In this document: positions 951 through 28,743 of the stretch, piece by piece
How the letters are laid out: each line of letters begins with the position of its first letter
How positions within the stretch are numbered: position 1 is the first letter of the stretch
Assembly: GCA_963796105.1 (NCBI GenBank)
Contig: CAWCKJ010000003.1
Coordinates: forward strand, 512,001-576,000
Direction of reading: 5' to 3'
Length of the DNA: 64,000 bases
Origin: a candidate division FCPU426 bacterium
GTDB taxonomy: Bacteria; Oederibacteriota; Muellerivitia; Muellerivitales; Muellerivitaceae
Position numbers and translations under genes: made by a program
The notes under the pieces: generated by a model
What the model saw: the letters and a program-made list of their open reading frames with translations, nothing else
Database searches by the model: none
What the model was told of the DNA's origin: nothing

Positions 951-1259
951 GTGAAATGTGCAATTTTTTCAAAAATACTGTATATAAAGGAACTGAAAGA
1001 GGTTTTTTATTTAGGCGGCAATTCATTGGCTAAAAGTAAAAATGATCAGCAAGTCATCCTGAAATTCGGAGAGAACATCCGGAAAATTCGTAAACAGCAC
1101 GGGTGGTCACAAGGAATATTAGGTAAAAATGCCGGAATGGACGCCAATTTCATCGGCTTCGCGGAACGCGGGGAGAGAAGCATTACTCTAAAGAATATTA
1201 TCAAGATTCAAAAAGCGTTACGTTGTCCCATCGGCGAATTGTTCGAGGGTATAAAATAA
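951..1259 (+). CDS. XRE/Cro-C1 family HTH transcriptional regulator (true start possibly TTG near 1026)
   Basis: FGENIRKIRKQHGWSQ...IGFAERGERSITLKNIIKI matches the HTH_3 pattern. Confidence 0.85.
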   Translation: MKCAIFSKILYIKELKEVFYLGGNSLAKSKNDQQVILKFGENIRKIRKQHGWSQGILGKNAGMDANFIGFAERGERSITLKNIIKIQKALRCPIGELFEGIK

Positions 1260-1314: not shown

Positions 1315-4044
1315 TTATTTTCCATTTAAGTATTGGACTGTCATTTTCAGTTTCTTTCTCGGCGCGTTCTCGTCCCCGCCGGGCAGGATAAATAAAACGT
1401 GCTTCCCTGGAGTAAGGTTTTTCAATTCCTTCTCCAATTCGCCGGTTTCCCGCTGGGAGCCGTCGGCTTTATCGACGTTCCAGATCACGTCCCCCAGTTT
1501 TAATCCGGTTTTATAAACGGGACTGCCGGTCCATAACACAGCCGCCACGCTCTTATCTACGAATAGCACCCCTTGGTGAAGATAAGGCAGTCCCGATACC
1601 GGGATGGCCTTGCCCCCCAGGACCCCTTTGGCCCAATATTCCATAGCTGAAACCAGGTTCCCCAATTCCCTCTTTGACCGGCATTCGAACGTGATGGCCT
1701 TTTTCAAATGAGGGATGACCAACCCGCATTGGTAAATCGTCTGGCTTTGATATTTACCGGAATAGACCAGGAGTTTATCGCTATGGATGGTTTTCAATTC
1801 CGTCCAATCAAACCCCACTCTCCACCCCTCATCTCCCGGAAGTTTGAAATGGAGAATAAGGCCGGTCCGGGATGGAAGGGCGGAGGTGACCTTGACCTTG
1901 TCGTTCCCAAACCACATGGAATATTTTTCACCGTCCTGGAGGGCTGCTAAATAAGAGCCGGCGGTATCCTCATCCAGTCGTGAATCGAGCCCCGGATTGA
2001 AGCTTTGGATCACGCAATATTCGGGAACAGGGTATATCTCATTCACTAAGCAGTTATAGTCCACATCCTCGGCACTCCAGGGCTTTGCGGGCTTGCTTGA
2101 GGAAGCGGAATGAACGGATTCGACTCCCTTCGTTCGCTCACCGCCATGTAATGGGGAATGGACAATTTCTTGATTTGCATTGGACTTATCCGAATGGCTT
2201 ATCCCAGTCTCTTTTTTAACATTTCCTATTTGCGTATTTTTGTTTCCGTTGGCAACTCCTAATTCCTCACTCCTAATTTCTAATTGTTTTTTGAGTTCTG
2301 GTTTTTCCAATCCGCATATTGTTCTCCAATTCGAGAAACTGGGCGCCTGGGCCTTCGGCAGGTATCCCTCCCATAGGCTTCGGGTAAACCAGGCCATGAC
2401 CAACAGAAAACCTATGATGGAAAGCTTCCCAATTCCCGGATTGAGGACCTCCTTTACCACTAGAAGCGAAATAACCGCGAGACCCAGGGCCAGTTTCGGG
2501 CTGTGGGGAATTTGGGATACGACATACAGCGGGAATTGGATAAAAGCGATATTCCAAATGACCCCGGAGACGGCATCGAATCTATCGCCCCAGGACGGGA
2601 CAAAATAACCGATTACCAGCTCGACGATTCCGAAGAATATGCCATAAGCCAATGGAACCATCAGAAGAAAGAGCCCCCAGTGCGCCAGCAGTCTGGAAAG
2701 GCTATTCCCTCCCCGTGAATGGCCGGAATGGGACCCGCTATGGGACTGGGGCGCTAGTTTATTGGCCAGGTAAATACTGGCGCGCAGGGGGAATTTGATG
2801 AATTTGAAAAGGTATTTGAAAATGGCCCTCGCCGCAAGCCAAGCATGATGCCCCAGGAATTTCAGATAGGCTTCCAACGATTTGCCTGCCCTGAGTCCGT
2901 CGAATGGGCTGGGATTCAGGGGATGCGGGGGATGGGCCTGCGCCGAGCTTGGTTGAGGGGCTGGGATGGCTTCGTTAGGAACATCAGGACTATTGGGAGC
3001 ATTGACCTTATCTTGATCGGATATTGATTTTGGCCGTAAACTAGCCAATCCCAGGGCAAGCTTTTCCCAAAGGGTCAGGGCTTTGCCGCCGGACGTTGCC
3101 TCCTCCAACCGCCCGTTCAGGTTTTTCCGGGCTATTTCACTTTTTTCATTAACTCCCAATTCCTCACTTCTACCTTCTAACTCCTGAGGGTCCTTTTGAA
3201 TGTTGCCCGCAGGCTTGGATCTTGGTTTTCGGGCCTTCTTTTCCGCCTCAAACTGGTCCAAATCCTTGCCTGAGACAGCGTGCGCCACAAATTCCTGAGT
3301 TTGTGGGCCGTTTAATTGCTTTTCTAATAGGATTGGTAAGATTTTATCCGCTAATAATCGGGCATCATCAAGTTTCCGATTATCTAAAAGCCGGATCAAT
3401 CGACAGGCGGCCTTCTCGGTCAAACACCATATTTTCACATTATTTGAATCATTATCATTTTCAACTTCGGAAAAGTTAGACAGTCTAACTCCTTGCCGCG
3501 CTGTTTGTAATATCAACTGCCTAGTCGCAGGGCTTAAGAGTTCCATCAAGCTAAATGCGCAACTAATCCTGTATGAAGACCACCCAGTCTTAGCCGCCAA
3601 TTCCTTCTGTTTTAAGCCAGTTAAGTTCCTAAGGTTTTCCAGGGCCATGAACTCCCCTAACCAATAGGGTTTATTGTCCCGGTTGGAGGTGAGGGCCCGG
3701 AACATGGCGTCTTCCAGGCTGATATCCAGGATCTCGGCCTCTATATGGGTCCGCCCCAAGCGTTTAAAGGCCTCTGCCCGCCTTTGGCCGGAAACAATGG
3801 CCCAAGGCGCCTGGCGGTTCCCTTTCCAGACCGTGATCCGGTCAAGGGTCCCCCCGTTTTTCAGGTAGTCCACCAGCATTTGCATCTCATCCTCTTCCAG
3901 GAAGGGCCGGGGATTCCATGACGGGACAGCCAGATCCACGATGGGAATCATGACGATCTCCGGGGGTTTGATTTGGGATTGGGCCTGGTCGGCGGGTTTG
4001 GGAACATTTTCCATAGACAACCTCCTTATAGTTAAAAAAGCCAT
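1315..4044 (-). CDS. ParB/Srx N-terminal domain + HTH + multi-pass membrane region + C-terminal PDZ-like domain
   Basis: IPIVDL..PSWNPR and IVSGQRRAEAFKRLG (ParB arginine patch); GLKQKELAAKTGWS (HTH); several hydrophobic helices around aa 455-555; GSPVYKTGLKLGDVIWNVD (PDZ-like). Confidence 0.75.
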   Translation of the reverse strand: MAFLTIRRLSMENVPKPADQAQSQIKPPEIVMIPIVDLAVPSWNPRPFLEEDEMQMLVDYLKNGGTLDRITVWKGNRQAPWAIVSGQRRAEAFKRLGRTHIEAEILDISLEDAMFRALTSNRDNKPYWLGEFMALENLRNLTGLKQKELAAKTGWSSYRISCAFSLMELLSPATRQLILQTARQGVRLSNFSEVENDNDSNNVKIWCLTEKAACRLIRLLDNRKLDDARLLADKILPILLEKQLNGPQTQEFVAHAVSGKDLDQFEAEKKARKPRSKPAGNIQKDPQELEGRSEELGVNEKSEIARKNLNGRLEEATSGGKALTLWEKLALGLASLRPKSISDQDKVNAPNSPDVPNEAIPAPQPSSAQAHPPHPLNPSPFDGLRAGKSLEAYLKFLGHHAWLAARAIFKYLFKFIKFPLRASIYLANKLAPQSHSGSHSGHSRGGNSLSRLLAHWGLFLLMVPLAYGIFFGIVELVIGYFVPSWGDRFDAVSGVIWNIAFIQFPLYVVSQIPHSPKLALGLAVISLLVVKEVLNPGIGKLSIIGFLLVMAWFTRSLWEGYLPKAQAPSFSNWRTICGLEKPELKKQLEIRSEELGVANGNKNTQIGNVKKETGISHSDKSNANQEIVHSPLHGGERTKGVESVHSASSSKPAKPWSAEDVDYNCLVNEIYPVPEYCVIQSFNPGLDSRLDEDTAGSYLAALQDGEKYSMWFGNDKVKVTSALPSRTGLILHFKLPGDEGWRVGFDWTELKTIHSDKLLVYSGKYQSQTIYQCGLVIPHLKKAITFECRSKRELGNLVSAMEYWAKGVLGGKAIPVSGLPYLHQGVLFVDKSVAAVLWTGSPVYKTGLKLGDVIWNVDKADGSQRETGELEKELKNLTPGKHVLFILPGGDENAPRKKLKMTVQYLNGK

Positions 4045-4213
4045 TATTCGCGGCCAATAACTGATTTTCTTACAATACTTTCAGTGTGTTATTATTTTCA
4101 ATAAAATTCAAAACGGATTTAGGAAAATCTTTTCCCGCCTGGAAATATTGGGTAATTAAAACAGACGGGGTTATAGAAGGCGAAAAGACGGACTGCCACC
4201 CGGGTTTAAGATA

Positions 4214-6163
4214 ATGCTATCCTGCTATAATCCATCCATGATCCAAAGCCCCTCTCCCGGCCTAGCCGCCACCCAAAGTTCCACCATGCCCCTATACCGT
4301 GATCCCTGGTTTTACGCGCTTCTGGCCGGGTTTCTCCTGCTGGTTCTGTTTTGCGCCCGCCTAAACAACGATTACGATTTCGGTTTCCACCTGAAGGGCG
4401 GCCAATGGATCCTGGAAAACCACGCTTTTCCCACCAAGGACACCTACACCTATACGGTCAACAACCATGATTACCTGGATATCCACTGGCTTTACCAGGT
4501 CACGCTCTACTCGCTTTACCGCCTCGGCGGCTATTCCCTTATATCCATCGCCAACATCGCCTTAATCCTCCTCATATTCATTATCCTCATGAAACGTCTG
4601 GGGCTCACCAGAGCCCCCTTTTGGCTTCTTGTACTCCTTTTCGGCATCGCGGTCCTGGGATGCGAACTGCGTTTCAGGGTCCGGCCCGAGTACCTCAGCT
4701 GGCTTTTCATGAGCCTCGACCTTTGGATCTTAGAAAAATGGAATCAACATCGAAAAGGCCCGATCTTTCTTCTGCCATTGATCCAATTGGCCTGGGTCAA
4801 CATCGAGGGCCTTTTCGGTATAGGCTGCGGCCTCACCGGCTTCTACCTGCTTTCTGGCCTGATCCACTCCCGCCGGTTGGACAAAAAGCTCCTGAGGTAT
4901 TTCATCCTCACCCTGGCCGCCTGCCTGGTGAACCCCCACTTCATCCGCGGGGCGTTATATCCCCTCCAGCACCTGGCCATGCTGGGGTCCCCCAATGTCT
5001 TCAAGGAAACCATCAACGAGCTCCAATCGCCCTGGACCCTGGCTGGCCGTTTCTCCTTCCTGCCGGAATGGACCCTTTACACCTACAAACTTTTTTGCCT
5101 TCTGCTACTGGTCTTATTCGCCGCGGCCTGGAAAAAAAGGAGGGCCGTCGATTATCTCCTGGCCGGTTGCTTTTTCATCTTCTCAGCCTCAGCCCAAAGG
5201 AACATCCCCCTCTTCATGCTGGTTAGTGTTCCCCTCGCGGCGTCCTGCTGGAAGGATTTGGCGTGGAAATGGCCCAAGAAAATCCATATGGCTTTCACGT
5301 CCAGGCCCTGGGCAGGCTGGGCTTTCACGGTTTTCCTTTTGGGAATCGGCATGAGGGTATTTACCAACGCCTATTACGTCTCAGAACGGCGCGCCGACCG
5401 CTTCGGCCTGGGATTGGATGAGGCCAAACTTCCGGTAAGGGCGGCAAGGTTCCTGGTGGAAAACCGCCTGGACGGGAGGATATTGAACCAAATGAACCTC
5501 GGCGGTTGGCTGGACTGGCAAGCCCCTCAAAAGGTCTTCTTGGACGGGCGCCTGGAAGTCATGGGGGAGGAACTATTCTCGGATTACTTCTCAAGCATGA
5601 AACCCGGCGGGCTGGAGCCCCTCACGGAAAAGTACGGGGTGGAAATCATGTTTTTCAATCCCGACACGGCCTTTCAATGGCTGTTGGAGCTTAAAAACAT
5701 GCCGGATTGGCGGGCGGTTTACCTGGATGACTCCACCGTGATTTACCTGAAAAAAGGTTACGCCCCAAAAGTGCCGGACCTGGACGACGGACAAGTATTC
5801 ACGAAGTGGGGCATTTCCCCCTCGATCCTGAAAGACGCGCCAACACTGCTCCAGGCGCCCCGCCCTTCGTCACGGGAATGTTTTTGGGAGGATTTCTACA
5901 GGCCTACGGATTACCCCATGGGCCTGCACCCCATCGACGCCTATTATTCCTACACAGGCCGTTTCGATCTGGCGGAGGCGGTCCACTTGGAAAACATCCG
6001 GCGGAGCCGGGGGCGATATTATGACTTGTTCTTCAACCTGGGGTCCATGTACTTTCACGCCGGAAAGTACGAACAAGCCAAGATTTGCATGGGCAGGGTC
6101 CTGGGCGAGGTTCCCGGCCTGCCGGCGGCCCAAAAGATATTGGATAGCCTTCCGACTCCATAA
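4214..6163 (+). CDS. Polytopic membrane protein, GT-C glycosyltransferase-like, with C-terminal TPR
   Basis: About 11 hydrophobic helices; first-loop DYDFGFHLKGG motif; FLDGRLEV; C-terminal FNLGSMYFHAGKYEQAK TPR. Confidence 0.6.
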   Translation: MLSCYNPSMIQSPSPGLAATQSSTMPLYRDPWFYALLAGFLLLVLFCARLNNDYDFGFHLKGGQWILENHAFPTKDTYTYTVNNHDYLDIHWLYQVTLYSLYRLGGYSLISIANIALILLIFIILMKRLGLTRAPFWLLVLLFGIAVLGCELRFRVRPEYLSWLFMSLDLWILEKWNQHRKGPIFLLPLIQLAWVNIEGLFGIGCGLTGFYLLSGLIHSRRLDKKLLRYFILTLAACLVNPHFIRGALYPLQHLAMLGSPNVFKETINELQSPWTLAGRFSFLPEWTLYTYKLFCLLLLVLFAAAWKKRRAVDYLLAGCFFIFSASAQRNIPLFMLVSVPLAASCWKDLAWKWPKKIHMAFTSRPWAGWAFTVFLLGIGMRVFTNAYYVSERRADRFGLGLDEAKLPVRAARFLVENRLDGRILNQMNLGGWLDWQAPQKVFLDGRLEVMGEELFSDYFSSMKPGGLEPLTEKYGVEIMFFNPDTAFQWLLELKNMPDWRAVYLDDSTVIYLKKGYAPKVPDLDDGQVFTKWGISPSILKDAPTLLQAPRPSSRECFWEDFYRPTDYPMGLHPIDAYYSYTGRFDLAEAVHLENIRRSRGRYYDLFFNLGSMYFHAGKYEQAKICMGRVLGEVPGLPAAQKILDSLPTP

Positions 6164-6203: not shown

Positions 6204-6542
6204 TTAATCACCGATGATTTCTTCCAGACCTTCCACGATTTGGGAAAGTTCCTCGGGAGTCGCGCGGCCTAATTTCTGCCCCAATCTCTCCACGGATAAG
6301 GTCCTGATTTGACTGATTTTAACCCAGGATTTTTTAGGCAGTTTACTACCGGCAAGCTCAAGTGTGAGGGGATAACCAGCCTTGGGTTCCTGGCTGGTGA
6401 GGGCCACGGCGATAACCGTACCGGATCTTTCATTGAAAACATCATGGCTTAATATCAAAACAGGCCTAGAACCGGACTGTTTATGACCCTTGGCTGGATT
6501 TAAATCAGCCCAAAGAATATCTCCCCTTAATATTTTGGCCAA
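6204..6542 (-). CDS. mazF: MazF/PemK family endoribonuclease toxin
   Basis: RGDILWADLNPAKGHKQSGSRPVLILS...QIRTLSVERL. Confidence 0.92.
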   Translation of the reverse strand: MAKILRGDILWADLNPAKGHKQSGSRPVLILSHDVFNERSGTVIAVALTSQEPKAGYPLTLELAGSKLPKKSWVKISQIRTLSVERLGQKLGRATPEELSQIVEGLEEIIGD

Positions 6543-6805
6543 TTTTTCAACTCGCCGGCCAACCCCTCGTCAGCGAGGGCTTGCTCGGATCTCTTGTCCA
6601 ATTTAGCGCATTCCCTGGCGAGACGGCCTCGTCCCAGGCGCGCGATCTTGTCCCTGAGCGCGTCCGTGATGGCCCTGCTTCGGTTGGGGTAAATTTTCTT
6701 TTCCACCAGCAGGTCCACGGATTTAAGGATTTCCTGGTCGAGTGTGATGGCTATTTTAGCCGCGGCCAGGATAACCTCCGGTATGATGTTTTTATGCTTA
6801 TGCAC
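6527..6805 (-). CDS. Ribbon-helix-helix antitoxin; native start likely CTG at 6769 after GGAGG, the GTG at 6805 lies inside the IS end
   Basis: KIAITLD...YPNRSRAITDAL RHH motif; overlaps the mazF start. Confidence 0.85.
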   Translation of the reverse strand: MHKHKNIIPEVILAAAKIAITLDQEILKSVDLLVEKKIYPNRSRAITDALRDKIARLGRGRLARECAKLDKRSEQALADEGLAGELKNWPKY

Positions 6806-7778
6806 AAAGTGACCGTGCTGTAATGGGTTTTGCTAAGGCACATGCGGTTAAGGCACGGTGAAATAAGGAATCGGGATCATGACGACGGTTGAACCGATAG
6901 GCATATTCACTTAGATACCGGCCTAAATACTTAGCATCAACGCCATGATGAGTTCCAATGATCCAGGCCTTGGCGTTGGAAATGAACCGGTGTACCCAGG
7001 GCAACCAACTTTCCAACTCTTTCGGGTCATTGGCCATCACCCGGTAGTCTGCCTCCACTCCTTTGAGTTCACGCAAGGCTGGCGAAGCATCTGTGTTGAG
7101 GAAAGAGCCTTTTTCCATAGTCTGATTCACGAATTCCTGGCTCTCCCACTTGGTTTCCATAGCTACCTTCACCTTGGCAAAACCCGCTTTTTCCTTCTTG
7201 CAACCATTCTCATCCACCCATTCCTTGCTTTCCACCGCCACCAAGACTTCCACTTGGTTTTCCTTGGCCTTTTTCCCAAAAACCGCCCCATCCAACTCAA
7301 TGACGCCCTTTAGAGTATAGCTTTCGTCCTTTTGCCTAAGACCTTCCCGGATCTTATGCAATAGAAGCCATGCCGAATGATCCGAAAGATTTAAATGCCG
7401 CTTCAGTTCCAGGGCCGAAATACCCCGTTTGCCCTGCATCATCAAACTGATGGCCCTGACCCAGGTTAAAAGAGGCAGCTTGGAGCTTTCAAAAATCGTC
7501 CCGGCGCGAAGCCGAAGACGTTTCCGGCAATAGTCACATTCCCTCACTTCAGGCTTGGCCTGGTGTTGCCAGAAGCTTTCGCCCTCACATTGGGGACAAA
7601 CAAAGTCTTTCCCGCCGAAACGGCATCTCCACACCCATTGGCGGGCTTCTTCTTCCGTGTGGATTTTCCTCAGAATTTTAATGCTTTTCATCCGCTGGTA
7701 GCTCATGTACCACCTCCCGTAGCGGACAGTATACCTATGTATTCCTTTATTTCAAGGGTCACTTAATACAGAAGCATG
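6793..7778 (-). mobile_element. IS1595-family insertion sequence, apparently intact (986 bp)
   Basis: Terminal inverted repeats ATGCTTATGCACAAAGTGACC (6794-6814) and GGTCACTTAATACAGAAGCAT (7757-7777) match at 17/21; 8-bp target duplication GATGTTTT at 6785-6792 and 7779-7786. Confidence 0.92.
6798..7706 (-). CDS. IS1595-family DDE transposase
   Basis: N-terminal zinc ribbon CPQC..CDYC, AGTIFESSKLPL, IELDG, NTD, GTHHGV..YLSEYAYRFNRR. Confidence 0.93.
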   Translation of the reverse strand: MSYQRMKSIKILRKIHTEEEARQWVWRCRFGGKDFVCPQCEGESFWQHQAKPEVRECDYCRKRLRLRAGTIFESSKLPLLTWVRAISLMMQGKRGISALELKRHLNLSDHSAWLLLHKIREGLRQKDESYTLKGVIELDGAVFGKKAKENQVEVLVAVESKEWVDENGCKKEKAGFAKVKVAMETKWESQEFVNQTMEKGSFLNTDASPALRELKGVEADYRVMANDPKELESWLPWVHRFISNAKAWIIGTHHGVDAKYLGRYLSEYAYRFNRRHDPDSLFHRALTACALAKPITARSLCA

Positions 7779-10512: not shown

Positions 10513-11587
10513 TCACACTCGACTTTCGAGTGTCTTATTCCTTTCCTTCAACCCCAACTTCTCCAAGGCCAAGTGGCGGTCGTCCGGCCCACCGTGTCAT
10601 AGCGCCTGAACATGGCATGCGTTTTATGCCCGCTGATGCTCATGATGACGTTGTCCGGGACACCCGCTTTTCTCAGGTTCGTGACCGACAACGCCTAAGA
10701 TCATGAAAGCGAAAATCCTTGATTCCCGCCCTCTCACAAGCCCTGTGGAACGCCTTTCGGATATTCCCGATGAATTTGCCCTTGAAGGTGAATACAAACC
10801 CGTGTCCCAAGGAAGCGGAATCCCGTGAAGTATTTCCAAAAGCTCTTCATTCAGGGGAATTTCTCGTTTTTCCTGATTTTTAGTGGATTCCGCTTCCAAA
10901 ACTATGACCTTGTTTTGAAAATCCACTTGGTCCCACCTAAGCCGCAAAATCTCCCCCTTCCTCATCGCCGTAACATAGGCCAACTGAACGATTGGCTTCA
11001 GGTGGCCGGAGCATTGAGAGAGGAGTCGCAATATTCATCCGGCGTCAGGGTCCTTGATCGCGGATTCTCCTTGAAAAGTTTTAAGCCCTCAAGGGGATTC
11101 CTATCAAGTTGCCTGTTCAAGACAGACCGGCGAATAATGGTCTTCAAACAGGCGATTTCCCGGTTAAGGGTTGCGCCCTTTAATTCCAAACCCGCCTGCT
11201 GTCTTTGACTTCGGCGAAAAACGACGTATTTTGCAATTTGGTCCAACGTCAGGCTTTCTAATAAACGATCCCCGAAAAAACCCTTGAGATGACCGACAAT
11301 CTGTTCATCCCGGTGAAAACTTTTCTTCATGGATTGCGAATAAGCCAAAAACGCATCTGCGGCCTCACTGAATATCAGCTTCGGCGTTTCCGAGGCCAAA
11401 AACCGATTATCAACAATTGCCTGCATGTGTTGGGCCAATACCTTTTTTGCTTGCGCCAAAGGAATTTGTCCCAATCGGACCCTTTTTCTTCTCGTGACTC
11501 CTTCCTCCTGGACTATGTAGTCCAGGAATATGCCCCATCATCCCTTCTTAGATGCTGGGGTAAGCCGTGAACATTAGGTTTACTCAT
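10513..11587 (-). pseudogene. Tyrosine recombinase/integrase with about five frameshifts
   Basis: Fragments in successive frames: AYxLDYIV...RVRLG, ATLNREIACLK, TAMRKGEIL, FRFHDLR, SISGHKT...RRYD. All catalytic R/H-R/H/Y motifs are recognisable; the start overlaps the xis stop (ATGA). Confidence 0.9.
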
Positions 11588-11859
11588 TGTCCTCTCCTAA
11601 TGTCCCTTGCAGTTGTTATTTTATCAGGATTGGTTTTAAATTCCAACGCACCATTCAACGGAGGTTTGTGGAACGTCCTTTGGAAATCCGAAAGCCATAT
11701 CCTGGGATGTCGTCCGACTTTCACAAAAGGCAAAGTGCCGGAATTCCGCCAGAATCGGACGGTTCGTACCGGCACCTTCGCCATGTGGGATACCTCATCG
11801 TCCGTCATGAGGTCATCCTTATCATTTTCCCGTCTTTTGACTGTTCTTCTTTCATTCAT
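11584..11859 (-). CDS. Excisionase-like HTH DNA-binding protein
   Basis: LMTDDEVSHMAKVPVRTVRFWRNSGTLPFVKVGRHPRI (HTH_17/Xis-like), directly upstream of the integrase. Confidence 0.85.
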   Translation of the reverse strand: MNERRTVKRRENDKDDLMTDDEVSHMAKVPVRTVRFWRNSGTLPFVKVGRHPRIWLSDFQRTFHKPPLNGALEFKTNPDKITTARDIRRGQ

Positions 11860-13078: not shown

Positions 13079-14140
13079 TTAAATCTTCTTATATCTCGTT
13101 GTCCGGCCCAAACCGATTCGCTCAACCTTCTTCAGGCGCATAAGCTTATCCAACACCTGGTTCACCGTCGGCCTAGCGACCTTTGCTTTTTTGGCAATCT
13201 CACCTGGGGTGGCTTCCTCTACCGTCTGGAGGTATTCCCAAACGGACAATTGCTTGGGTGAGAGGATTTTCCCGATATCCTCATGCGTCAAAAGCTTAAC
13301 CGCAGCCCTGGCCTGGCTCAAAATCATTGTCAAAAAGAACTCCAACCAAACGCTGATATCCTCGCGTTTCGTCGTGAGGGTCCTTTGACTCTTGCGCAGG
13401 GCCATGTAATAGTCGGGCTTGTTGTCCTCAACCAGTTTCTCATGGGATACATAGGGCATGAATAAATAACCCGCCTGGAGAAGTAGGAAGTTGGTCAGGA
13501 CACGGGATATCCTGCCGTTCCCATCCTCGAAAGGATGGATTTTCAGGAATTCCACGATGAAATTGCCAATGACCAGCAGGGGATGAAAATTTTTCTTCCC
13601 CAGTGCCTCTTGCGTCCATTCCACGAGTTCCTGCATTTCCTTGGCGGTCAGGTAGGCGGGAGTGGTGTCAAAAAGGATGCCGGCCGACTTCCCCGCCGCG
13701 TCGATCATGTGAACCTTGTTTTCCTTCTTCTTGTATTGCCCTCGGTGTAGCTTGTCCTTGTCAACGTACTTGAGCATTTCCTGGTGCAGATGCTTGATGG
13801 TCCCTTCGGTTAAACGGAGGGTCTCCCATGCGTCGAAGACGTTTTGAAGGAGCTCGAAGTAGCCCTTCACCTCCTGCTTGTCCCTGTCGGCGAATTTCTG
13901 GATGGAAATACCCCGCATCAGTTTCTCTATATCCTCGTCCGAGAGCAGGGCTCCCTCAATGCGGGTGGAGGCCCCAGTGGAAGTAACCAACACCGATCTC
14001 TTGAGGCGTCCCAGAATTTGGGGGCTGAGCTTGGCACCCGCCGTCCACTGGCCCTTCAATTCGTCGATCTGGGCGACCTTTGCCCATATCTCGCCTGAAA
14101 GCTGCTGGATTCTCTTTTCAAATTTCCCCTCAACGGCCAT
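13079..14140 (-). CDS. Fic-domain protein (class II) with C-terminal wHTH
   Basis: HPFEDGNGRISR; N-terminal STRIEG inhibitory motif. Confidence 0.92.
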   Translation of the reverse strand: MAVEGKFEKRIQQLSGEIWAKVAQIDELKGQWTAGAKLSPQILGRLKRSVLVTSTGASTRIEGALLSDEDIEKLMRGISIQKFADRDKQEVKGYFELLQNVFDAWETLRLTEGTIKHLHQEMLKYVDKDKLHRGQYKKKENKVHMIDAAGKSAGILFDTTPAYLTAKEMQELVEWTQEALGKKNFHPLLVIGNFIVEFLKIHPFEDGNGRISRVLTNFLLLQAGYLFMPYVSHEKLVEDNKPDYYMALRKSQRTLTTKREDISVWLEFFLTMILSQARAAVKLLTHEDIGKILSPKQLSVWEYLQTVEEATPGEIAKKAKVARPTVNQVLDKLMRLKKVERIGLGRTTRYKKI

Positions 14141-21166: not shown

Positions 21167-22579
21167 CACTCTTGTCCTAAATAAAGGCCTAAAAAAAGAC
21201 GCCTCCGATTGAAGTAGAATTGGATTTGATGACAGCCCAAAGCAACGGTTACCAGCCGTCGCTACTTCAAACATACGGAGGCGCTTTTTTATGGTACCAC
21301 CAACCAGTCTATTTGCCCAAGTGTTGAAACTCGTAGACCGAACCGCTTTTGAGCGAATCGTGCGAGAGATTGAAGCCGAAAAGCACTCCAAGGGATTCAG
21401 TTGCTGGGATCAGTTTGTTTCCATGCTTTTCTGCCAGATGGGAGCAGCCCATTCCTTGAGGGAAATCTGTGGCGGCCTCAGTACGGCCCTTGGGAAATTG
21501 ACCCACTTGGGTCTTTGCAAAGCTCCCACTAAATCCACCTTGGCCTATGCCAACGCCAAGCGTTCTTGGCGGGTTCAACAAAAGCTTTTTTACCATTTAT
21601 TATCGAAGTGCCAGTTGTTGGCGGCCACCTCAAAAAGAAAATTCAGGTTTAAAAATCCTCTTTATAGCCTGGATTCCAGCACCATCGACCTTTGTTTGTC
21701 AGTGTTCGACTGGGCGAAATTCCGTAGAACCAAAGGGGCCATCAAACTCCATCTTCTGCTGGACCATCAGGGGTACTTGCCCTGCTGGGGACTCGTAACG
21801 GAGGGAGGCACGCATGACGTGAAGGTGGCCCAAAAGCTCGATTTTCCAGTGGATTCAATCGTGGTGATGGATCGGGGGTATGTGGATTTCTTTCTTCTGG
21901 CCCGATGGACATTCCAAGGCGTGTGGTGGGTGACCCGGGCCAAGATCAACATGGCCTACGAGGTGGTGAAAAGCCTGACGGTTCCGAAAACGGGCAACGT
22001 CCTGAAGGACCAGGTGATACGGTTGACGACGTTTCGGTCACATGAAGCCTACCCTAAAGAGATGCGACGGGTGGTGGTATGGGACGAAGACCAGAAGCGG
22101 GAGTTGGTGTTCCTGACCAACCACATGGGTTTTGCCGCCTCGACGGTGGGTGCCATTTACAAGGAACGTTGGCAGATCGAGTTGTTTTTCAAGGCTCTCA
22201 AGCAGAACCTCCGGGTAAAAACTTTTGTGGGTACCACTGAGAATGCCGTTCAGACGCAGATTTGGACAGCATTGATTGCCATGCTACTGTTGAAGTTCCT
22301 TCAATTGAAGAGCCGGATCGCCTGGAGTTTATCCCACTTGGCTGCCATGCTACGGATGAACCTGTTGACCTATCGTGATTTGTGGGCCTGGTTGGATGCA
22401 CCGTTCCTAGTGGCGAGACTGGAACCTTTGGAAAAGCAGATGGAATTAATACATTCTTAATTTGGACAGCATCAGGACGAAAGAGGGGGGGCTTATCCCA
22501 GAAAATTCACGAGCCTGTCCTAAATCGCTTGTTTTCCTGGGAGGTTCAAAGACAAATAGGTTTATCTAGGACAGCAGTG
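21167..22579 (+). mobile_element. IS4-family insertion sequence, apparently intact (1413 bp)
   Basis: Ends CACTCTTGTCCTAAATAAA and TTTATCTAGGACAGCAGTG are inverted repeats; 9-bp target duplication ATATATTTT at 21158-21166 and 22580-22588. Confidence 0.92.
21291..22460 (+). CDS. IS4-family DDE transposase
   Basis: LDSSTIDL, VMDRGY, YKERWQIELFFKALKQ (YREK signature). Confidence 0.95.
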   Translation: MVPPTSLFAQVLKLVDRTAFERIVREIEAEKHSKGFSCWDQFVSMLFCQMGAAHSLREICGGLSTALGKLTHLGLCKAPTKSTLAYANAKRSWRVQQKLFYHLLSKCQLLAATSKRKFRFKNPLYSLDSSTIDLCLSVFDWAKFRRTKGAIKLHLLLDHQGYLPCWGLVTEGGTHDVKVAQKLDFPVDSIVVMDRGYVDFFLLARWTFQGVWWVTRAKINMAYEVVKSLTVPKTGNVLKDQVIRLTTFRSHEAYPKEMRRVVVWDEDQKRELVFLTNHMGFAASTVGAIYKERWQIELFFKALKQNLRVKTFVGTTENAVQTQIWTALIAMLLLKFLQLKSRIAWSLSHLAAMLRMNLLTYRDLWAWLDAPFLVARLEPLEKQMELIHS

Positions 22580-23024
22580 ATATATTTTAACAAATAAATA
22601 AAAACTTTGGTAATTTAAGTGTTTTAAACTCCTTACTTGTTAAACTTTACCGCACTTTTTTTCCATTAAACGCAATTCCTTGATTATTGGGAATTGGCGT
22701 TCGTAGAACAATTTTCGCGTGAAATGTTAATTATATTTGTGCGGGTTAAAGCGGGTCACGAATTAGGCAATTTCGGTAAAACGAGGCTTAAAAGGTCATA
22801 TTTACAAAAAAGCCAAAGGTATAAGGATATTTGCGGGGTAAGCCCGCAGAGGGGTTTATTTGGAATTAGAATTCTCGTCCAACACCTTATCCAACCGGCT
22901 TTTTTGGTCGTCCGTGATTTCTGTAGTGTTCACAAAATATCTTCCGGTTCTGGCGTTACCAGCTTGAGAGGTTTTCCGCCTCGGGTTCTTTTGACAAGTT
23001 GAAAATTTTCCAACGTCTCGTGAA

Positions 23025-23104
23025 AGAAACAAAGGGGTCAGGCCATCATTCAACACTTTATAAAAAATAGAAACAAAGGGGTCAGGCCATCATTCAACAC
23101 TTTA
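23025..23104. repeat. Perfect 36-bp direct repeat, two copies 8 bp apart
   Basis: AGAAACAAAGGGGTCAGGCCATCATTCAACACTTTA at 23025 and 23069. Confidence 0.9.
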
Positions 23105-23297
23105 CGAGCCACATCTCGCTGCATCTCGCGTCGGGCATCCAAAAGCTCACCACGTCGAAAGACATGGGGTCGAGTCTTGTGAACAAGGGGTCAGACTCCA
23201 CGCTCCGCAGCGTGTAGTAGGGTACATATTACACTTTAAACCCAACCACCGGACCCATCCTAAACCCATCTAACGTTTTACCCAACCATGCTAAACA

Positions 23298-23603
23298 TTA
23301 CTTTTTAGATCGATAATGCGCTTTACCAATTTCTTTTTTTGAAATTGGCACACCCAAAGCTTGCGCCTCGGCTTGTAGCCTCGGCACAGGGGTTTTTTCG
23401 CGGACGACCGGGACTTTCTCATCCACATTTACATATACAGCTTTGCCGTTGCGCATGACGGCAATGGGAAGACCTAAACGCCTATGTTCCTCGATGACGC
23501 CATCCACAGCCAACTGAAGGGCTTTCTCGGCCCTCAGCCCCTCCGGAGTCGGTCGATTAGAAACGCGTTGTTTCTTCAATGCGGTTTTTTTAAAAGCTTT
23601 CAT
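23298..23603 (-). CDS. Putative antitoxin partner of the zeta-like ATPase
   Basis: Overlaps the upstream gene stop by 4 bp; AVDGVIEEHRRLGLPIAVMRNGK; second copy at 25042. Confidence 0.7.
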   Translation of the reverse strand: MKAFKKTALKKQRVSNRPTPEGLRAEKALQLAVDGVIEEHRRLGLPIAVMRNGKAVYVNVDEKVPVVREKTPVPRLQAEAQALGVPISKKEIGKAHYRSKK

Positions 23604-24187
23604 CTAACCCTCTTCAACATTTCAACAATTCTACCGTAAATTTCGGGCAGTATAATGCTATCTTTCCCCGGGGACCGCTCAAATACCAGCCGGGGCGTGG
23701 ATGAGGAATTGTCGAATATCGCGCAATAATCAACCAAGTACATATAAATATCAAAGAGATTTCGCAATCCTTTGTCATAACGACGGCGCGCAACTTCCGC
23801 CGGAATATTATGCCCTCCTAAACGCACCCTGTCGGCAATCCGCTTGAGAGCCAAAGGAATCCCAGGTATCCAAAGGAAATAAAGCCTGATCTCATACCCC
23901 TTGTGGCGCAGTTCCTTAAACAGACGAATATATCCCATACCGAAAAGCGTTGTTTCAAAGCCAAACCCGGTCCCACGCCGGACTTGTTCCCGGATGCTTC
24001 CCATGAAAAGCCTGCCGGCTTGAATGGCCGCGGCGTCAACATTGAACGGTGACAATCCCTTCGCGATCAAGTCGGCGTTGATGAAATTGCGGCAGTCGGC
24101 GATCTTGGGCAGGTACTGGGTCGCGAAAGTAGTTTTACCCGAGCCGTTCGGCCCGGCGATCACGTAAACAACCGGTTTTGTTTTCAC
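23600..24187 (-). CDS. Zeta-toxin-like / AAA P-loop kinase
   Basis: IAGPNGSGKTT, FINADLIA, FETTL, RVRLGGHNIP. Confidence 0.88.
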   Translation of the reverse strand: MKTKPVVYVIAGPNGSGKTTFATQYLPKIADCRNFINADLIAKGLSPFNVDAAAIQAGRLFMGSIREQVRRGTGFGFETTLFGMGYIRLFKELRHKGYEIRLYFLWIPGIPLALKRIADRVRLGGHNIPAEVARRRYDKGLRNLFDIYMYLVDYCAIFDNSSSTPRLVFERSPGKDSIILPEIYGRIVEMLKRVR

Positions 24188-24286
24188 ACAACACCTTCTT
24201 TGAACATTGGGACTTTTACTTTGAGCTGTTGGAGGGTGCTCATTGTATTCATGGAAGTATTCTAGAGAAAATAGTTAGGAGTGAGG

Positions 24287-24360
24287 AGTTAGCCCCAACT
24301 GTTTTTTAACAGTTGGTACAACCAAATCTCGTCATTCGCCTTGTAGGCTCACGACAGGTG
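24287..24360. repeat. Dispersed REP-like structured repeat, short form
   Basis: Colinear with 27897-28075; flanked by TTAGGAG/TGAGGAG heptamers. Confidence 0.85.
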
Positions 24361-24388
24361 AAGTTAGGAATTGGTCATTAACCACTGA

Positions 24389-24929
24389 TTAACGAACCCG
24401 ATAAAGCGACTTTTTTTCCTCGAGATACCCGATCCGCCGTTTGGGTTTCTCCGGCACTTTCATCAGATCCCTTAAAGCATCGAAAACAGCCTGGATTTTC
24501 GCGTCTTGGGAACCAACTTTTTTCTCCAAGGCTTCCAATTTTCGAGCTAAATCCTTATGAACCGCCAAAGCTTCCCTAAGGCGTATAAACGCTCGTACGA
24601 CGAAAACACTCATTCTCACAGCTTGTTTGCTATTGAGGACGTTTGCCACCATCATTGCCCCGTGCTCGGTAAAGACATATGGCGGAAAACGGGGGTCACG
24701 ATGCTTCTGGGAACCGGTCGCAAATTGCGACCGGTTCAAATCCTCCACCTCAGGCCCAGAAAGGCGAAACATGAAATCATCAGGGAAACGGTCTTTATTA
24801 CGTCTAACCTGTTCGTTCAAGCGTTTCCGTCTGGACTCCATAAATACGCGCTAAATCGGCATCCAAAATAATGAGAATCAATCCCTCGACAACAGCCGGA
24901 ACCTTATATTCACCTTGTTCTTCCGTCAT
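24389..24929 (-). pseudogene. ORF6N-domain DNA-binding protein, frameshifted near 24830
   Basis: ATG 24929 after GGAGG gives ...ILDADLARIYGVQT, then another frame KRLNEQVRRNKDRFPDDFMFRL...PYVFTEHGAMM. Confidence 0.85.
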
Positions 24930-25041
24930 ATACACCTCCAAGCCTTAATCTTGATATCGCAAATTGCGATATCAAACCGGTCGCAATTTGCAACCGCATC
25001 AAACAACCGGATTATTTTAAAACCCCTAAAAAACTCTGAAA

Positions 25042-25278
25042 TTATCGTTTTGCCCGATAGCGCGCTTTGGGCTCGTTCACGGCCGGGACTATCTCAGCCA
25101 CATTTACATATACAGCTTTGCCGTTGCGCATGACGGCAATGGGAAGACCTAAACGCCTATGTTCCTCGATGACGCCATCCACAGCCAACTGAAGGGCTTT
25201 CTCGGCCCTCCGTCCTTCGGGAGTCGGTCGATTAGAAACTCGTTGTTTCTTCGATGCGGTTTTTTTAAATGCTTTCAT
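25042..25278 (-). CDS. Second copy of the putative antitoxin
   Basis: About 95% identical to 23603 over the first 60 aa; part of the 229-bp duplication. Confidence 0.7.
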   Translation of the reverse strand: MKAFKKTASKKQRVSNRPTPEGRRAEKALQLAVDGVIEEHRRLGLPIAVMRNGKAVYVNVAEIVPAVNEPKARYRAKR

Positions 25279-25363
25279 CTAACCCCCTTCAACATTTCAA
25301 CAATTCTACCGTATATTTCGGGCAGTGAGCGCAATAGGATCACGTCATTCTTTTGTGATACCA

Positions 25364-26422
25364 TTAATGGCGCGTGGACTCGATTCTCTCCCATAGGGCA
25401 TCCCGGCCCTTACCCAGGCACCTGATGAGACCTTTGCCCTTCAAATCCGACAAAGCCCTTTTTAAAGTCGGATAACTGACCCCGGGACAAGCCTTTTGCA
25501 AATCGCCGAATTTGAACTGTTGGGACAGGCGCGTGACAGCGTTCTGGACCATTTCACGTTTGGCGCCCTTCGCGCTGGTGATGGACCCCATCCGAGCCTC
25601 GAAATCATCGTAAGCGGCTGTCAACATGCCCAGGAAATATTCCCACCATGGCCTCGTGTCATGGCGGGCCGCATGCCAATCCTTGGAACTCTTCAGAAGA
25701 GTTTCATAGTATGACTCTTTGCTTTGCTCCACCACCCGTTCCAAGCTGATATAACGACCCACCTCAAAACCCTGCTGATAAAGAAGTAAAAGCGTCAAGA
25801 GGCGGCCCAACCTGCCATTGCCGTCCATGAAGGGATGAATGCATTCAAAGTCCAGGATGAAGGAGGCCACCAGAAGAAGGGCGTCCACTTTTTCCTCATC
25901 CAAAGACTTTTGATAATATTCCAGCAATTTTTCCATGAACTCGGGCGCCGCCAAAGCGGAAACCGGTTTGAACCGGACAGCCGCTTGCCCGCCAGGCTTT
26001 ATTTCCAGGATGGCGTTATCCTTGCTCTTCCAATGGCCGCCATTTTCGGGAGTGTATCGATACATGCGACGATGCCAGTCCAGGATCAGACCGGTTGTCA
26101 ATTTCATGCGAGAGTGGTTGGTGTGGATATCAGCCAGAACATCCCTGTAACCGGATACTTCCTGCTCGGAACGGTCCTGTGGTTTGGTCTTTCCAGTCAC
26201 CAAGGGGGCCAGACGGTTGGGAGAGACAATGATACCCTCGATACGATTGGAGGATTCAGCGCTTTGGATCATCGCCACTTGGCGCAGGGTTTCAAGAATT
26301 TCCGGGGACTGGTCAGTGTGCATATCTTGCCGGCCCCGATACTCGCCCAACACCCTAAGAGACTTGCCCAGTGAATGGCCCAAGGGAGTATCCAACAAAT
26401 AGCCATGTTCGAAAGATTTCAT
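25364..26422 (-). CDS. Fic-domain protein (class II)
   Basis: HPFMDGNGRLGR; SNRIEG inhibitory motif; C-terminal wHTH. Confidence 0.92.
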   Translation of the reverse strand: MKSFEHGYLLDTPLGHSLGKSLRVLGEYRGRQDMHTDQSPEILETLRQVAMIQSAESSNRIEGIIVSPNRLAPLVTGKTKPQDRSEQEVSGYRDVLADIHTNHSRMKLTTGLILDWHRRMYRYTPENGGHWKSKDNAILEIKPGGQAAVRFKPVSALAAPEFMEKLLEYYQKSLDEEKVDALLLVASFILDFECIHPFMDGNGRLGRLLTLLLLYQQGFEVGRYISLERVVEQSKESYYETLLKSSKDWHAARHDTRPWWEYFLGMLTAAYDDFEARMGSITSAKGAKREMVQNAVTRLSQQFKFGDLQKACPGVSYPTLKRALSDLKGKGLIRCLGKGRDALWERIESTRH

Positions 26423-26985
26423 GTCATTTCCTTTATAAAAACACTTAGGGCGGGGCGGCCTATTAATAGTATCACGAAATAGATTCTTGATACCATTATT
26501 TTCAGGGATCGTTTTTATGAAAAGACAACGGGGTCAAGTCTTCATTTTATATTCAGAAAACCTTTTCACGATACCCTGATCCCCCACCAAGCCCTTCCTT
26601 TGCACCGTGCACCGATACCCAGTCCCATTCTTCCCAAAACTTTTAGTCCTTGGCCTTCGACTTAAGCAGATCGTTATTTGGGTTCATTTTTCTCTTGGAT
26701 ATTTTATGTAGCGTACTGATTCTCATTACCCCTTCTTCTTTTTGCCTTTTCCCTTCTTCGTATCCTCGCCCATTTCATCCCCCAATTATTTTTCCAATTC
26801 CTCGATGGTGGGTAATCCGGTTTTTCGAATACAAGCAGGGGTATTTTCTTACGCGAAGGCAATTGTGCAAGGGGTCATTGCACAATTGACCGTTCCGGCC
26901 ATGCCGCCGCAAGGGTTTTTAAGAGAATCAATGATTTCCGTATCAGGCATGGCCATAAAAGCCCCCTAACAATTATATTTTCGAT

Positions 26986-27228
26986 TTATTCCCCTACCAT
27001 TTGGTCCGCCAAGATGTTTCCGGTGGTTTGATCTATCACAATCACTCTTCCCCCGCCCAGATGAGGCGTGCCAGAGGGGCAAAAAACGCACCAAACATCA
27101 TCGCCGGATAAGTCCGACGCTCCATAAAGGTTTAGGTCCTTCGGAATCCCATGGACGATTTTGAAATCGCCCATCGTACCCGCCACCTTGTTTTTCGCGA
27201 TCTCAAGCGCATTATTTTGATCTATCAT
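26986..27228 (-). CDS. Small hypothetical protein
   Basis: GGGAG RBS upstream, 80-aa globular-looking sequence; no family recognised. Confidence 0.55.
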   Translation of the reverse strand: MIDQNNALEIAKNKVAGTMGDFKIVHGIPKDLNLYGASDLSGDDVWCVFCPSGTPHLGGGRVIVIDQTTGNILADQMVGE

Positions 27229-27851
27229 AATTTGAATTCTCCCTTACTTCTTATTCCCCACGAAGTTCATGGCTGAATTTAAAGCCGAATAACTCGAAAG
27301 TTTCTTTACGGGTAAAAAAGACACCGTCCGTTACACGCAAGAAGCCGGATTCTTCCATCCCCACCCGGAAATTGCCGTCTTTCTGGGCCCCTTTCAGGGC
27401 GTCATAATGCTCCATCCCTGTGTAAATTTTCCCCGAGATCGGGTCCTTGATAGCGGCCGTGAAAATCAGATTTGTTAAAGGGTTCAGTCATAAAAACCTA
27501 TTTTTTGGGTTTGTGATATTTAAAAGGTTTATCGCATTCAGTGCAAAGCAAATCCTTGCCTTCGGCGCCATCCATCCCACATCCGCCCAAAACCAGCTTA
27601 CCCTCGCTCATCAATTTCTCCATGCCCTCGCTCATATAGGGCCATTCCCCAAAGAATAACTGCCACTTTCTCGGACGAGCAATAGGAGCATTTTTGCCCC
27701 TTCAGGGTCCGTTTGGTTTCCCGAATCATTCTCAGGTCTTCTTCATCTATTTTCATTCGCAATCACCTCATGACTTTGTTTGATCTACAAGAATAGATTA
27801 CACCAGGGTACGGACAATCCTAAAAACGACCCAAATAAATGAAATTAGGGG

Positions 27852-28095
27852 CCCCTTCGACGAGCTCAGGGCCCTGAGCCCCGTCGAAGGGTTAGAAGTT
27901 AGCCCCAACTGTTTTTTGACAGTTGGGACAACCACCCCTTGGGCTTTCGCCCAAGGGCGATAAAAATCATCGAATCTCGTCATTCGCCTTGGACCAACTT
28001 TCTTTAAGTTGGCATTATCAAGATCTGCCCTTCACCTAGTGGGTGAAGAGCAGATAAATAGGCTCACGACAGGTGGAATTATGAATTAGGAGTTG
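27852..28095. repeat. REP-like palindrome plus long form of the 24287 repeat with two inserted hairpin modules
   Basis: CCCTTCGACGAGCTCAGG/CCTGAGCCCCGTCGAAGGG palindrome, then core 27897-28075 with insertions at 27935-27972 and 27992-28058. Confidence 0.85.
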
Positions 28096-28150
28096 ACTGA
28101 AAAACAATGAAAAATTGTAGAAGAACCCTTAAGACATTATATCGTTGTAT

Positions 28151-28456
28151 CTAAGCGGAATGCGCGTGGATGCGGGTTTCGATCCGGGTCCATCCGGCGC
28201 GTTGCGCGAGCCGAAGGTCATAATCCGTTTGCAGGTTGAGCCAGGTTTCAGGTGTCACGCCAAAATACTTCCCAAGCCTTAACGCCGTGTCCGCCGTGAT
28301 TGACCGCCCGCTGTTGACGATCCCGCTGATACGGTTTGGGGGAACCATGATCTCCCTGGCCAAACGGTTAATGCTGATACCCATCGGCTTCATGAATTCC
28401 TCCAAAAGCACCTCCCCCGGATGGATGGGGACTAATTTCTTGGTTTTCGCCGTCAT
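28151..28456 (-). CDS. higA: HigA family antitoxin
   Basis: PIHPGEVLLEEFM...SITADTALRLGKYFG...WLNLQ. Confidence 0.95.
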   Translation of the reverse strand: MTAKTKKLVPIHPGEVLLEEFMKPMGISINRLAREIMVPPNRISGIVNSGRSITADTALRLGKYFGVTPETWLNLQTDYDLRLAQRAGWTRIETRIHAHSA

Positions 28457-28464
28457 CGCTCACC

Positions 28465-28743
28465 TCAATGATAATCAATAATTTCCACGTCGATCGCTTC
28501 CCCATCGCGCCATCGAAAACAAATCCGCCATTGTTTATTGACGCGGATACTGTGCTGGCCTTCCCGGTCCCCCTTTAAGGCCTCCAACTGGTTCCCGGGT
28601 GGGACCCGCAAATCCTCAAGTTTCTTCGCCGCGTTCAAGTAAAGAAGCTTACGCCTGGCGACACGCTCAATATTCGCGAAACACGCGACCACGTTATCAT
28701 GGAATAGCGACTCGGCGTCTTTATCCCGGAACGATCGAATCAT
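28465..28743 (-). CDS. higB: HigB (RelE-superfamily) toxin
   Basis: MIRSF...DLRVPPGNQLEALKGDREGQHSIRVNKQWRICFRW...DYH. Confidence 0.95.
   Translation of the reverse strand: MIRSFRDKDAESLFHDNVVACFANIERVARRKLLYLNAAKKLEDLRVPPGNQLEALKGDREGQHSIRVNKQWRICFRWRDGEAIDVEIIDYH

Follow-up and report, generated by a model that had tools for sequence, protein, structure and literature searches.

A ParB-type DNA-binding protein fused to a predicted membrane anchor and a PH-PDZ module in a candidate division FCPU426 bacterium

We analyzed a 64,000-nucleotide stretch of a candidate division FCPU426 genome (assembly GCA_963796105.1, contig CAWCKJ010000003.1, positions 512,001 to 576,000 of the forward strand; the window) and describe here the gene on its reverse strand at 1315-4044, which joins a ParB/Srx-type N-terminal domain and a ParB/Noc-type DNA-binding domain to a predicted membrane anchor, a PH fold, and a PDZ domain. 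This fusion is real and not an assembly join. Judged from sequence and predicted structure, the protein has about an even chance of being an integral-membrane, sequence-specific DNA tether that holds its target DNA at the inner membrane. An initial annotation, made from the letters alone, had proposed an integral-membrane clamp dependent on cytidine triphosphate (CTP), with no parA in the window. Our results support the architecture, the missing parA, and the proposal that the protein binds DNA from within the membrane; the CTP-dependent clamp comes out weaker than stated.

The gene is a single open frame of 909 amino acids (aa) without interruption, and residue numbers throughout refer to this frame. 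The second ATG, at 4014, has a ribosome-binding site ahead of it and the database entry for the protein is an 899-aa form, so translation probably starts there. In a full-length structure model built from 68 sequences, predicted local distance difference test (pLDDT) scores exceed 90 over most of the folded domains and drop under 50 in a pair of long linkers. In order along the chain, the parts are:

1315..4014, minus strand: whole gene, likely 899 aa from the ATG at 4014 (frame open from 4044)
3673..3963, minus strand: ParB/Srx N-terminal nucleotide-binding fold, aa 28-124 (Pfam, PDB sequence search, fold match)
3907..3921, minus strand: Box I-like WNPR motif (alignment to this genome's canonical ParB)
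3769..3789, minus strand: Box II GQRR, with invariant G and R and with Q replacing catalytic E78 (alignment)
3673..3690, minus strand: Box III, with invariant N and with S replacing catalytic E111 (alignment)
3262..3672, minus strand: ParB/Noc-type DNA-binding domain, aa 125-261 (fold match)
about 3556-3585, minus strand: recognition helix within the DNA-binding domain
about 3400-3420, minus strand: second contact helix within the DNA-binding domain
2878..3219, minus strand: disordered cytoplasmic linker with short repeated-DNA inserts (pLDDT <50, blastn)
2755..2877, minus strand: basic amphipathic helix ahead of the anchor, predicted to lie on the membrane surface (hydrophobic moment about 0.49)
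2371..2700, minus strand: predicted membrane anchor, four hydrophobic helices, aa 449-558 (hydropathy, model)
2107..2352, minus strand: disordered outer linker with short repeated-DNA inserts (pLDDT, blastn)
1609..1983, minus strand: PH-fold domain, aa 688-812 (structure model, fold search)
1327..1578, minus strand: HtrA-type PDZ domain, aa 823-906 (structure model, fold search, weak Pfam match)

We searched 1.84 billion representatives with a profile; 314 matched at E<=0.001, and we examined the best 150 of the 314. Clustered at 50% identity, these contained 60 near-full representatives, defined as having most of the C-terminal module (C-module) and at least 250 residues ahead of it. Among the matches listed, 25 of the 60 carry the ParB N-domain and the C-module in one chain, the window protein being one of them; 23 lack the N-domain and begin at the DNA-binding domain, and 12 are truncated or unclassified. 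The full fusion also occupies one frame in other genomes and in metagenome contigs. The explanation that the initial annotation had itself named as fatal, an assembly error that fused parB with a separate membrane-PDZ gene, is ruled out by these independent assemblies and by the 25 clusters, and we regard it as having negligible probability. The profile search recovered the family; a word-index search with the whole protein returned only itself, and a scan of all species genomes with a single C-module gave only one weak unrelated match.

The N-domain matches Pfam ParB_N at aa 30-121 (E 2.6e-5, 24.6 bits, under the 26.3 cut-off), and a phmmer search of solved structures placed Noc first (E 1.1e-7), followed by Spo0J/ParB. 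The model of aa 28-124 superposes on CTPgammaS-bound Caulobacter ParB (7bm8) with Z 13.5 and a root-mean-square deviation (rmsd) of 2.3 over 97 residues. By its modeled fold the protein is a member of the ParB/Srx superfamily, and the ParB/Srx motifs read by eye in the initial annotation are genuine, GQRR lying at aa 86-89. We aligned 26 ParB-bearing sequences to the canonical ParB of this genome. The G and R of Box II and the N of Box III are kept in all 26, and neither catalytic glutamate is conserved: the position of Bacillus subtilis E78 holds Q in nine, E in six, H in six, D in three, and K in two, and that of E111 holds D in 13, S in nine, A in three, and G in one, never E. The window protein has Q87 and S120 at these positions. 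In B. subtilis ParB, the substitutions E78Q and E111Q leave CTP binding, clamp closure, and the other in vitro functions in place and abolish hydrolysis (PMC8494293; this and the other papers are cited from the portions of their text available to us). The simplest reading of a pocket with G, R, and N kept and both glutamates replaced is that it binds a nucleotide and turns it over slowly. The label CTPase is unsupported, since both hydrolysis glutamates are replaced. The CTP-dependent clamp is weakened by the replaced glutamates, the lack of a dimerization domain, and a sister clade without the N-domain. A recent survey of the ParB fold found binders of CTP, ATP, and GTP whose nucleotide choice is not predictable from sequence (10.1101/2025.10.10.680097).

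The helix-turn-helix (HTH) motif of the initial annotation belongs to a whole ParB/Noc-type DNA-binding domain: the model of aa 125-261 matches that of Noc (6y93) with Z 10.5 and rmsd 2.9 over 104 residues, and the Pfam HTH_ParB match is weak (E 0.15). No ParB C-terminal dimerization domain follows it by Pfam match, the model showing a disordered linker and then membrane helices. The several transmembrane helices noted earlier resolve into four predicted hydrophobic helices at aa 449-558, called from hydropathy. A hydrophobic segment (Kyte-Doolittle [KD] hydropathy of at least 1.6) stands ahead of the C-module in 59 of the 60 near-full representatives among the matches listed. Most relatives are single-pass, combining a basic amphipathic helix with a membrane helix whose inner flank is basic, and the window protein belongs to a four-helix subgroup; similar basic/aromatic helices precede the anchor in relatives. 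Under the positive-inside rule, basic loops stay on the cytoplasmic side. Over 27 four-helix sequences, lysine plus arginine (K+R) residues number on average 4.0 ahead of helix 1, 0.67 in the loop to helix 2, 0.33 in the loop from there to helix 3, and 2.0 in the loop to helix 4. Because of this distribution, which agrees with the single-pass members, the anchor is most likely three passes and one surface helix with an outer C-terminus, and the PH-PDZ module lies with good probability on the outer side of the membrane. Residues 11-24, the region where Noc has its amphipathic helix, are of low confidence in the model and rich in Pro/Gln.

Short DNA repeats seen elsewhere in the genome lie in frame within both linkers (window 2109-2165, 2253-2291, and 2908-2937), and in relatives the in-frame repeat inserts are longer and occur in a loop of the ParB domain as well.

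Folded alone, the C-terminal 261 residues reach a pLDDT of 94.3. The further globular domain that had been left without a name is a PH fold: its model has the seven-stranded sandwich and C-terminal helix, its best match is 6f24 (Z 9.9, rmsd 3.6 over 108), and PH-fold chains occupy nearly all of the top 50 rows of the fold search. The PDZ-like C-terminus is likewise borne out by fold, matching HtrA-family 1y8t with Z 8.2 and rmsd 2.3 over 79, and HtrA-family chains top the Foldseek list. By Pfam it stays below the cut-off in the window protein (PDZ_2, E 0.076), and 13 of 37 relatives have a Pfam PDZ match at E<=1, the best at 8.3e-5. The PDZ domain has a two-residue insert in a loop that reads PYLxQG and that we take to be the carboxylate-binding loop; the usual PDZ carboxylate-binding motif is shorter. 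The PH-PDZ core is 24-56% identical among relatives, and an Atlas search with it gave a best match of 0.89 to an unnamed cluster. In the PH domain, aa 754-788 hold a near-invariant His (35/37) and Cys (36/37) with two more partly conserved Cys, a set that could form a disulfide or a metal site.

Within the phylum, C-module matches occur in 8 of 99 genomes, all in the host's family and with up to 17 in one genome, and the ParB-bearing front end alone is more widespread (23/99 at E<=1e-25). In the 30 loci examined, what follows this front end is PH-PDZ, another outer domain, a TPR tail, a lone membrane helix, or nothing. Six loci (L158, L160, L169, L173, L177, and L178) have the same front end and anchor with a different C-terminal domain of about 140 aa, whose nearest Atlas clusters are VirB8/IcmL/TraE (0.86-0.89), a lead that neither Pfam nor PDB profiles confirmed. 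Nine relatives were found in this genome: the window gene, two N-domain-less PH-PDZ genes, three with a DNA-binding domain and a helix, one cut by a transposon, and two soluble ParB-bearing genes. The three minimal members (C4:1196524, C4:724380, and C2:127577; contig and position) pair a DNA-binding domain with a single membrane helix that has cysteines close to its end. The two soluble relatives lie at C3:264435-265805 and C4:1322950-1323702, the latter behind arrays and with a degenerate Box II.

The N-domain-less genes group into a single clade when the tree is built from the DNA-binding domain (SH-aLRT 93, quick search). In the C-module tree they are scattered and group by host genome, requiring 11 changes, and a single clade is rejected (p-AU 1.7e-5). 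This pattern suggests that paralogs have exchanged modules. We rejected repeated independent loss of the N-domain, the reading that the C-module tree taken alone would give, in favor of one loss with module exchange, given the single clade of the DNA-binding domain.

N-domain-less relatives are accompanied by arrays of direct repeats. A tandem-repeat search of the DNA ahead of the family's genes first revealed the division. To compare the two forms we added 74 metagenome loci and dropped 42 partial frames, leaving 79 members, or 59 at 90% identity, of which one was excluded for too little upstream DNA; an array was called when its periodicity score exceeded that of all 200 shuffles. An upstream array was found in 36 of 38 N-domain-less genes versus 1 of 20 ParB-bearing genes, the window gene being among those without one. 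Of the 321 spacings in 38 arrays, 268 fall at 20-23 bp and another 26 at 41-44 bp; the mean unit is 21.46 bp (about two helical turns), the median copy number is eight, and the distance from the last site to the start codon has a median of 44.5 bp. The 9-10-bp core is private to each gene, within a loose shared pattern. The association of arrays with N-domain loss counts as one evolutionary event, since the N-domain-less genes form one clade. Across the phylum, searches with two consensus patterns returned at least two matches in 8 of 9 genomes with strong N-domain-less genes versus 2 of 90 others; the single genome missed is 63% complete. One genome, G052, had arrays and no C-module match, and five N-domain-less genes were then found in it. 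In the genome studied here, 54 arrays occur in 45 loci (patterns set by eye), of which seven adjoin a family gene; some array classes have no adjacent family gene. The anchor persists where the N-domain or the outer module is lost, as in the three minimal genes, each of which stands behind a 43-bp array.

The arrays of this genome (for example C3:489685, C3:495439, C4:1537400, C7:100806, and C12:89909) fall into several core classes with up to 38 copies, and 43-bp units alternate two different cores. At C6:86482-86589 and C12:331303-331389, fragments covering roughly the first 36 codons of a paralog pass straight into a repeat array, which begins about where the HTH would start.

The array cores vary with the residues predicted to touch DNA. 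Among 164 protein columns in 38 gene/array pairs, the top four by shared information with the core align with Caulobacter ParB N178, Q162, G201, and R204, all of which contact parS (PMC7383237). We also asked whether identity at ten contact positions given in that paper follows the similarity of the cores, measured without alignment, once overall identity is removed. The contact set gave a partial r of 0.358 versus 0.100 +/- 0.055 for entropy-matched column sets, none of 2000 reaching as high, in a test that was chosen after the column ranking had been seen and in which the pairs are non-independent. The best 8-column window is the recognition helix, and at the N178 position N goes with T in 8/8 and F or I with G in 9/10. 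Sequence-specific DNA binding by the family is thus supported independently by covariation in relatives. Because the arrays vary with the predicted contact residues, the family likely pins specific DNA sites to the membrane.

A TGTCCG word is enriched ahead of the ParB-bearing genes. It occurs upstream of 11 of 21 of them versus 2 of 38 N-domain-less genes (background 10.5%), with T-rich flanks, in either orientation, and about 85-170 bp before the start. We do not regard it as the protein's own site: it stays constant while the recognition helices differ, the 21 include several near-copies, and the variant seen in the window lies within a hairpin that resembles a terminator:

4015..4213, no strand: upstream intergenic region common to the divergent gene; no 21-22-bp array; doubtful TGTCCG variant

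A parS-like palindrome is not enriched upstream of ParB-bearing genes (29% vs 31% background).

We envisage the tether as follows. The N-terminus would be cytoplasmic and the PH-PDZ module outside, likely in the periplasm, and the DNA-binding domain would read a 9-10-bp non-palindromic core. In the ParB-bearing form, to which the window gene belongs, a nucleotide, probably CTP, would close two N-domains around DNA, the membrane part substituting for the missing C-terminal dimerization domain. With both catalytic glutamates gone, the closed state would be long-lived, making a membrane-fixed eyelet through which DNA slides. In the derived form without the N-domain, loading and sliding would be replaced by hard-wired arrays, whose two-turn spacing would put all sites on one face of the helix, toward the flat membrane, an arrangement that suits binders held in a plane. 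Binding beside its own start codon would also limit the protein's own expression, autorepression following from the position of the array just before the gene. The PH-PDZ module may bind an envelope partner and thereby position or release the tether.

Several observations weigh against this picture. In B. subtilis, attaching a transmembrane helix to Noc led to broken chromosomes (PMC8429893), damage that a sliding eyelet could soften. Among the ParB-fold proteins purified in the survey cited above, 17 of 28 bound no nucleoside triphosphate (NTP) (10.1101/2025.10.10.680097). Helix 2 of the window protein is hydrophobic enough to cross the membrane (mean 0.55-0.63, low moment), which would place PH-PDZ inside the cell, and some relatives have no membrane helix at all. 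No array pattern occurs in the window, and since the window gene has neither an array nor an identified site, the array evidence is borrowed from relatives. N-domain loss with array gain happened once, so that the contrast of 36/38 with 1/20 is a single event kept through divergence. As the two consensus patterns were derived from these arrays, G049 and G052 alone count as out-of-sample, and as many as six matches in one genome came from reversed control patterns. A tree-based independent-pairs test of the covariation had 1, 2, and 5 usable pairs, of which none opposed it and none was significant, and was underpowered; in a previous version that depended on the frame, r for distant pairs was 0.20 with the contact set and hardly lower, 0.16, with the rest. 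Finally, the family is patchy (C-module in 8/99 genomes, ParB-type N-module in 23/99) and often represented by broken copies.

A wider form of the tether, which we put forward tentatively, is a previously undescribed chromosome-to-membrane attachment system in which integral-membrane ParB-fold proteins, each having a DNA code of its own, would dock dozens of phased tracts from around the chromosome at the inner membrane, with a hydrolysis-poor sliding NTP clamp as the ancestral state and the array form derived from it.

It is somewhat unlikely, and not incompatible with tethering, that the protein is instead a transmembrane transcription regulator resembling ToxR or CadC, in which PH-PDZ would sense an envelope signal such as exposed C-termini and the ParB part would control nearby promoters, by repression or activation possibly over a distance as with KorB or VirB. 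With a DNA-binding domain and at least one membrane helix predicted by hydropathy, the protein falls within the formal definition of such regulators; its order of DNA binder, anchor, and outer domain fits the surveyed class, which also has lineage-specific expansions (PMC10269533). The HtrA/DegS type of the PDZ domain and the placement of the arrays shortly before start codons fit as well, and orphan ParBs acting as regulators are listed in the ParB-fold survey (10.1101/2025.10.10.680097). Set against this, the loci share no common neighbor family as a plausible target, every paralog has a private core, and 5-38 copies are more than an operator usually needs. Relay of an extracytoplasmic signal to DNA, also raised in the initial annotation, is possible; we favor tethering over it because the outer module is exchangeable or missing while the anchor stays.

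Relics of mobile elements are an unlikely explanation. The gene and its array would then be a single-protein partition or transfer module, like StbA/stbS of R388 or Streptomyces TraB/clt, with specificity diversifying as in incompatibility groups. The adjoining direct repeats, the private specificity, and the patchy multi-copy spread are what such a module would leave, StbA, which works without an NTPase, binds direct repeats located upstream of the operon that encodes it (10.1101/2022.04.29.490116), and the VirB8/IcmL/TraE lead for some relatives' end domain points the same way. So does the proximity of transposase matches, found within 1.5 kb of 25 of 45 array loci versus a control mean of 4.9, the control being unmatched for intergenic length. 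On the other hand, viral contigs and plasmids gave no match to the family, no integrase, relaxase, or rep neighbor is conserved, the window gene sits on a 918-kb contig with 23 tRNA genes, the VirB8-like call is unconfirmed, and the C-modules group by host genome.

We consider a self-perpetuating and mostly neutral paralog family, with a decaying N-domain and with arrays and genes spread by recombination and insertion sequence (IS) activity, to be very unlikely: it would account for the frameshifted and cut copies, the repeated-DNA inserts in linkers, the modules shuffled between paralogs, and the absence from most of the phylum, but not for a nucleotide pocket with G, R, and N invariant in 26/26, a conserved PH-PDZ core, or array phase and residue-matched cores kept across divergent genes.

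Of known systems, Noc comes closest to how the proposed tether would work, except that the anchor of Noc is peripheral and that of the tether would be integral. Noc (7nfu, 7ng0, and 6y93) is the top sequence and fold match over the N-domain and the DNA-binding domain, and it likewise has no ParA-binding motif, links DNA to membrane, and uses dispersed sites (PMC8429893). Noc itself binds membrane weakly through a CTP-gated N-terminal amphipathic helix and has a C-terminal dimerization domain and 16-bp sites, whereas the anchor of the window protein is integral and C-terminal and bears an outer PH-PDZ module. The window protein scores 44.4 bits with the NCBIfam Noc model TIGR04285, against a cut-off of 315. 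The ParABS system shares the same N-domain and DNA-binding folds with Box II G/R and Box III N. In contrast, the ParA-binding LG(R/K)GL motif, present in this genome's own ParB, is found in 0/26 of the ParB-bearing N-termini, E111 is replaced in 26/26, no parA is nearby, and the C-terminal dimerization domain is missing. By these tests the protein is neither a canonical ParB nor Noc.

The ToxR/CadC class offers a DNA-binding domain, a membrane helix, and an outer domain in one chain, with lineage-specific expansion (PMC10269533); it differs from our family in that the latter has an NTP-binding fold ahead of the DNA-binding domain and no regulon was found for it. StbA of R388 is an autoregulating HTH protein with direct repeats (stbS) upstream of its own operon and no NTPase partner; its 9-bp sites have 2-bp spacers and lie on a plasmid, and the word "membrane" is absent from the main text describing it (10.1101/2022.04.29.490116). 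The fusion family, by contrast, is chromosomal, ParB-derived, and membrane-anchored, and a plasmid or mobile-element location was not found for it. Plasmid iterons are phased direct repeats of about 21-22 bp beside the binder's gene; unlike iteron binders, the family has a ParB fold and a membrane anchor, and no Rep-like domain was seen. TraB of Streptomyces is membrane-bound, stands beside its own repeats, and is an FtsK-like ATPase translocase; no such ATPase domain was seen in the fusion protein. What the two share is element-specific recognition of direct repeats (PMC9513070). The initial annotation did not recognize the architecture, and we too found no published description of it in a search that covered few subscription papers; such a fusion might appear in tables outside the text. 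The main text and text supplements of the ParB-fold survey do not contain "PDZ" (10.1101/2025.10.10.680097), nor does the main text of a microbial PDZ survey contain "ParB"; both words are missing from the main text of the transmembrane-regulator survey (PMC10269533).

The canonical parA-parB pair of this genome is on another contig (C4:1.579 Mb). A tblastn search with its ParA gave one chance match in the window (E 0.36) and none in 117 other loci, a single query that could miss distant ParA types. The pattern that we take to be canonical parS has one match in the genome, at C4:875565, about 700 kb from parA-parB. Across 42 loci of the family no neighbor is conserved, the largest clusters by eye being surface proteins, PIN, and IS.

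The region around the window gene is variable and holds transposases, genes of toxin-antitoxin type, and a split integrase. An XRE-type HTH gene (window 951-1259, plus strand) is convergent on it, and the divergent gene (window 4214-6163, plus strand) encodes a multi-pass membrane protein with a C-terminal TPR, glycosyltransferase-like by eye, with 20 matches in this genome and 15 in a genome of the same genus. A variable island left of a tRNA-Lys gene (window 6204-7706, 10624-11859, 13079-14140, and 21291-28743) contains a PemK/MazF pair, an IS1595-type transposase, a two-frame integrase with an excisionase-like HTH, two Fic genes, a Zeta-toxin-like gene, and ORF6N. Elsewhere, on contig C2 (L005:4000-7200), a repeat-spacer-like tract with Cas-like open reading frames, recognized by eye, lies just upstream of the paralog P0003.

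The ParB-family clamps described in the papers cited here are soluble or only briefly at the membrane, and a natural family with an integral anchor and an outer PH-PDZ module raises the question of how such an attachment is tolerated, used, and released. The clamp-bearing form without arrays and the clamp-less form with them amount to a natural experiment on the purpose of the nucleotide switch, and the 38 gene/array pairs provide a testable residue-to-base code for the ParB/Noc DNA-binding domain and a candidate binder for the repeat arrays. If the wider attachment system is borne out, the family would be a natural, coded version of the old idea that DNA is segregated by attachment to the membrane, and it would offer a ready set of orthogonal DNA-membrane tethers.

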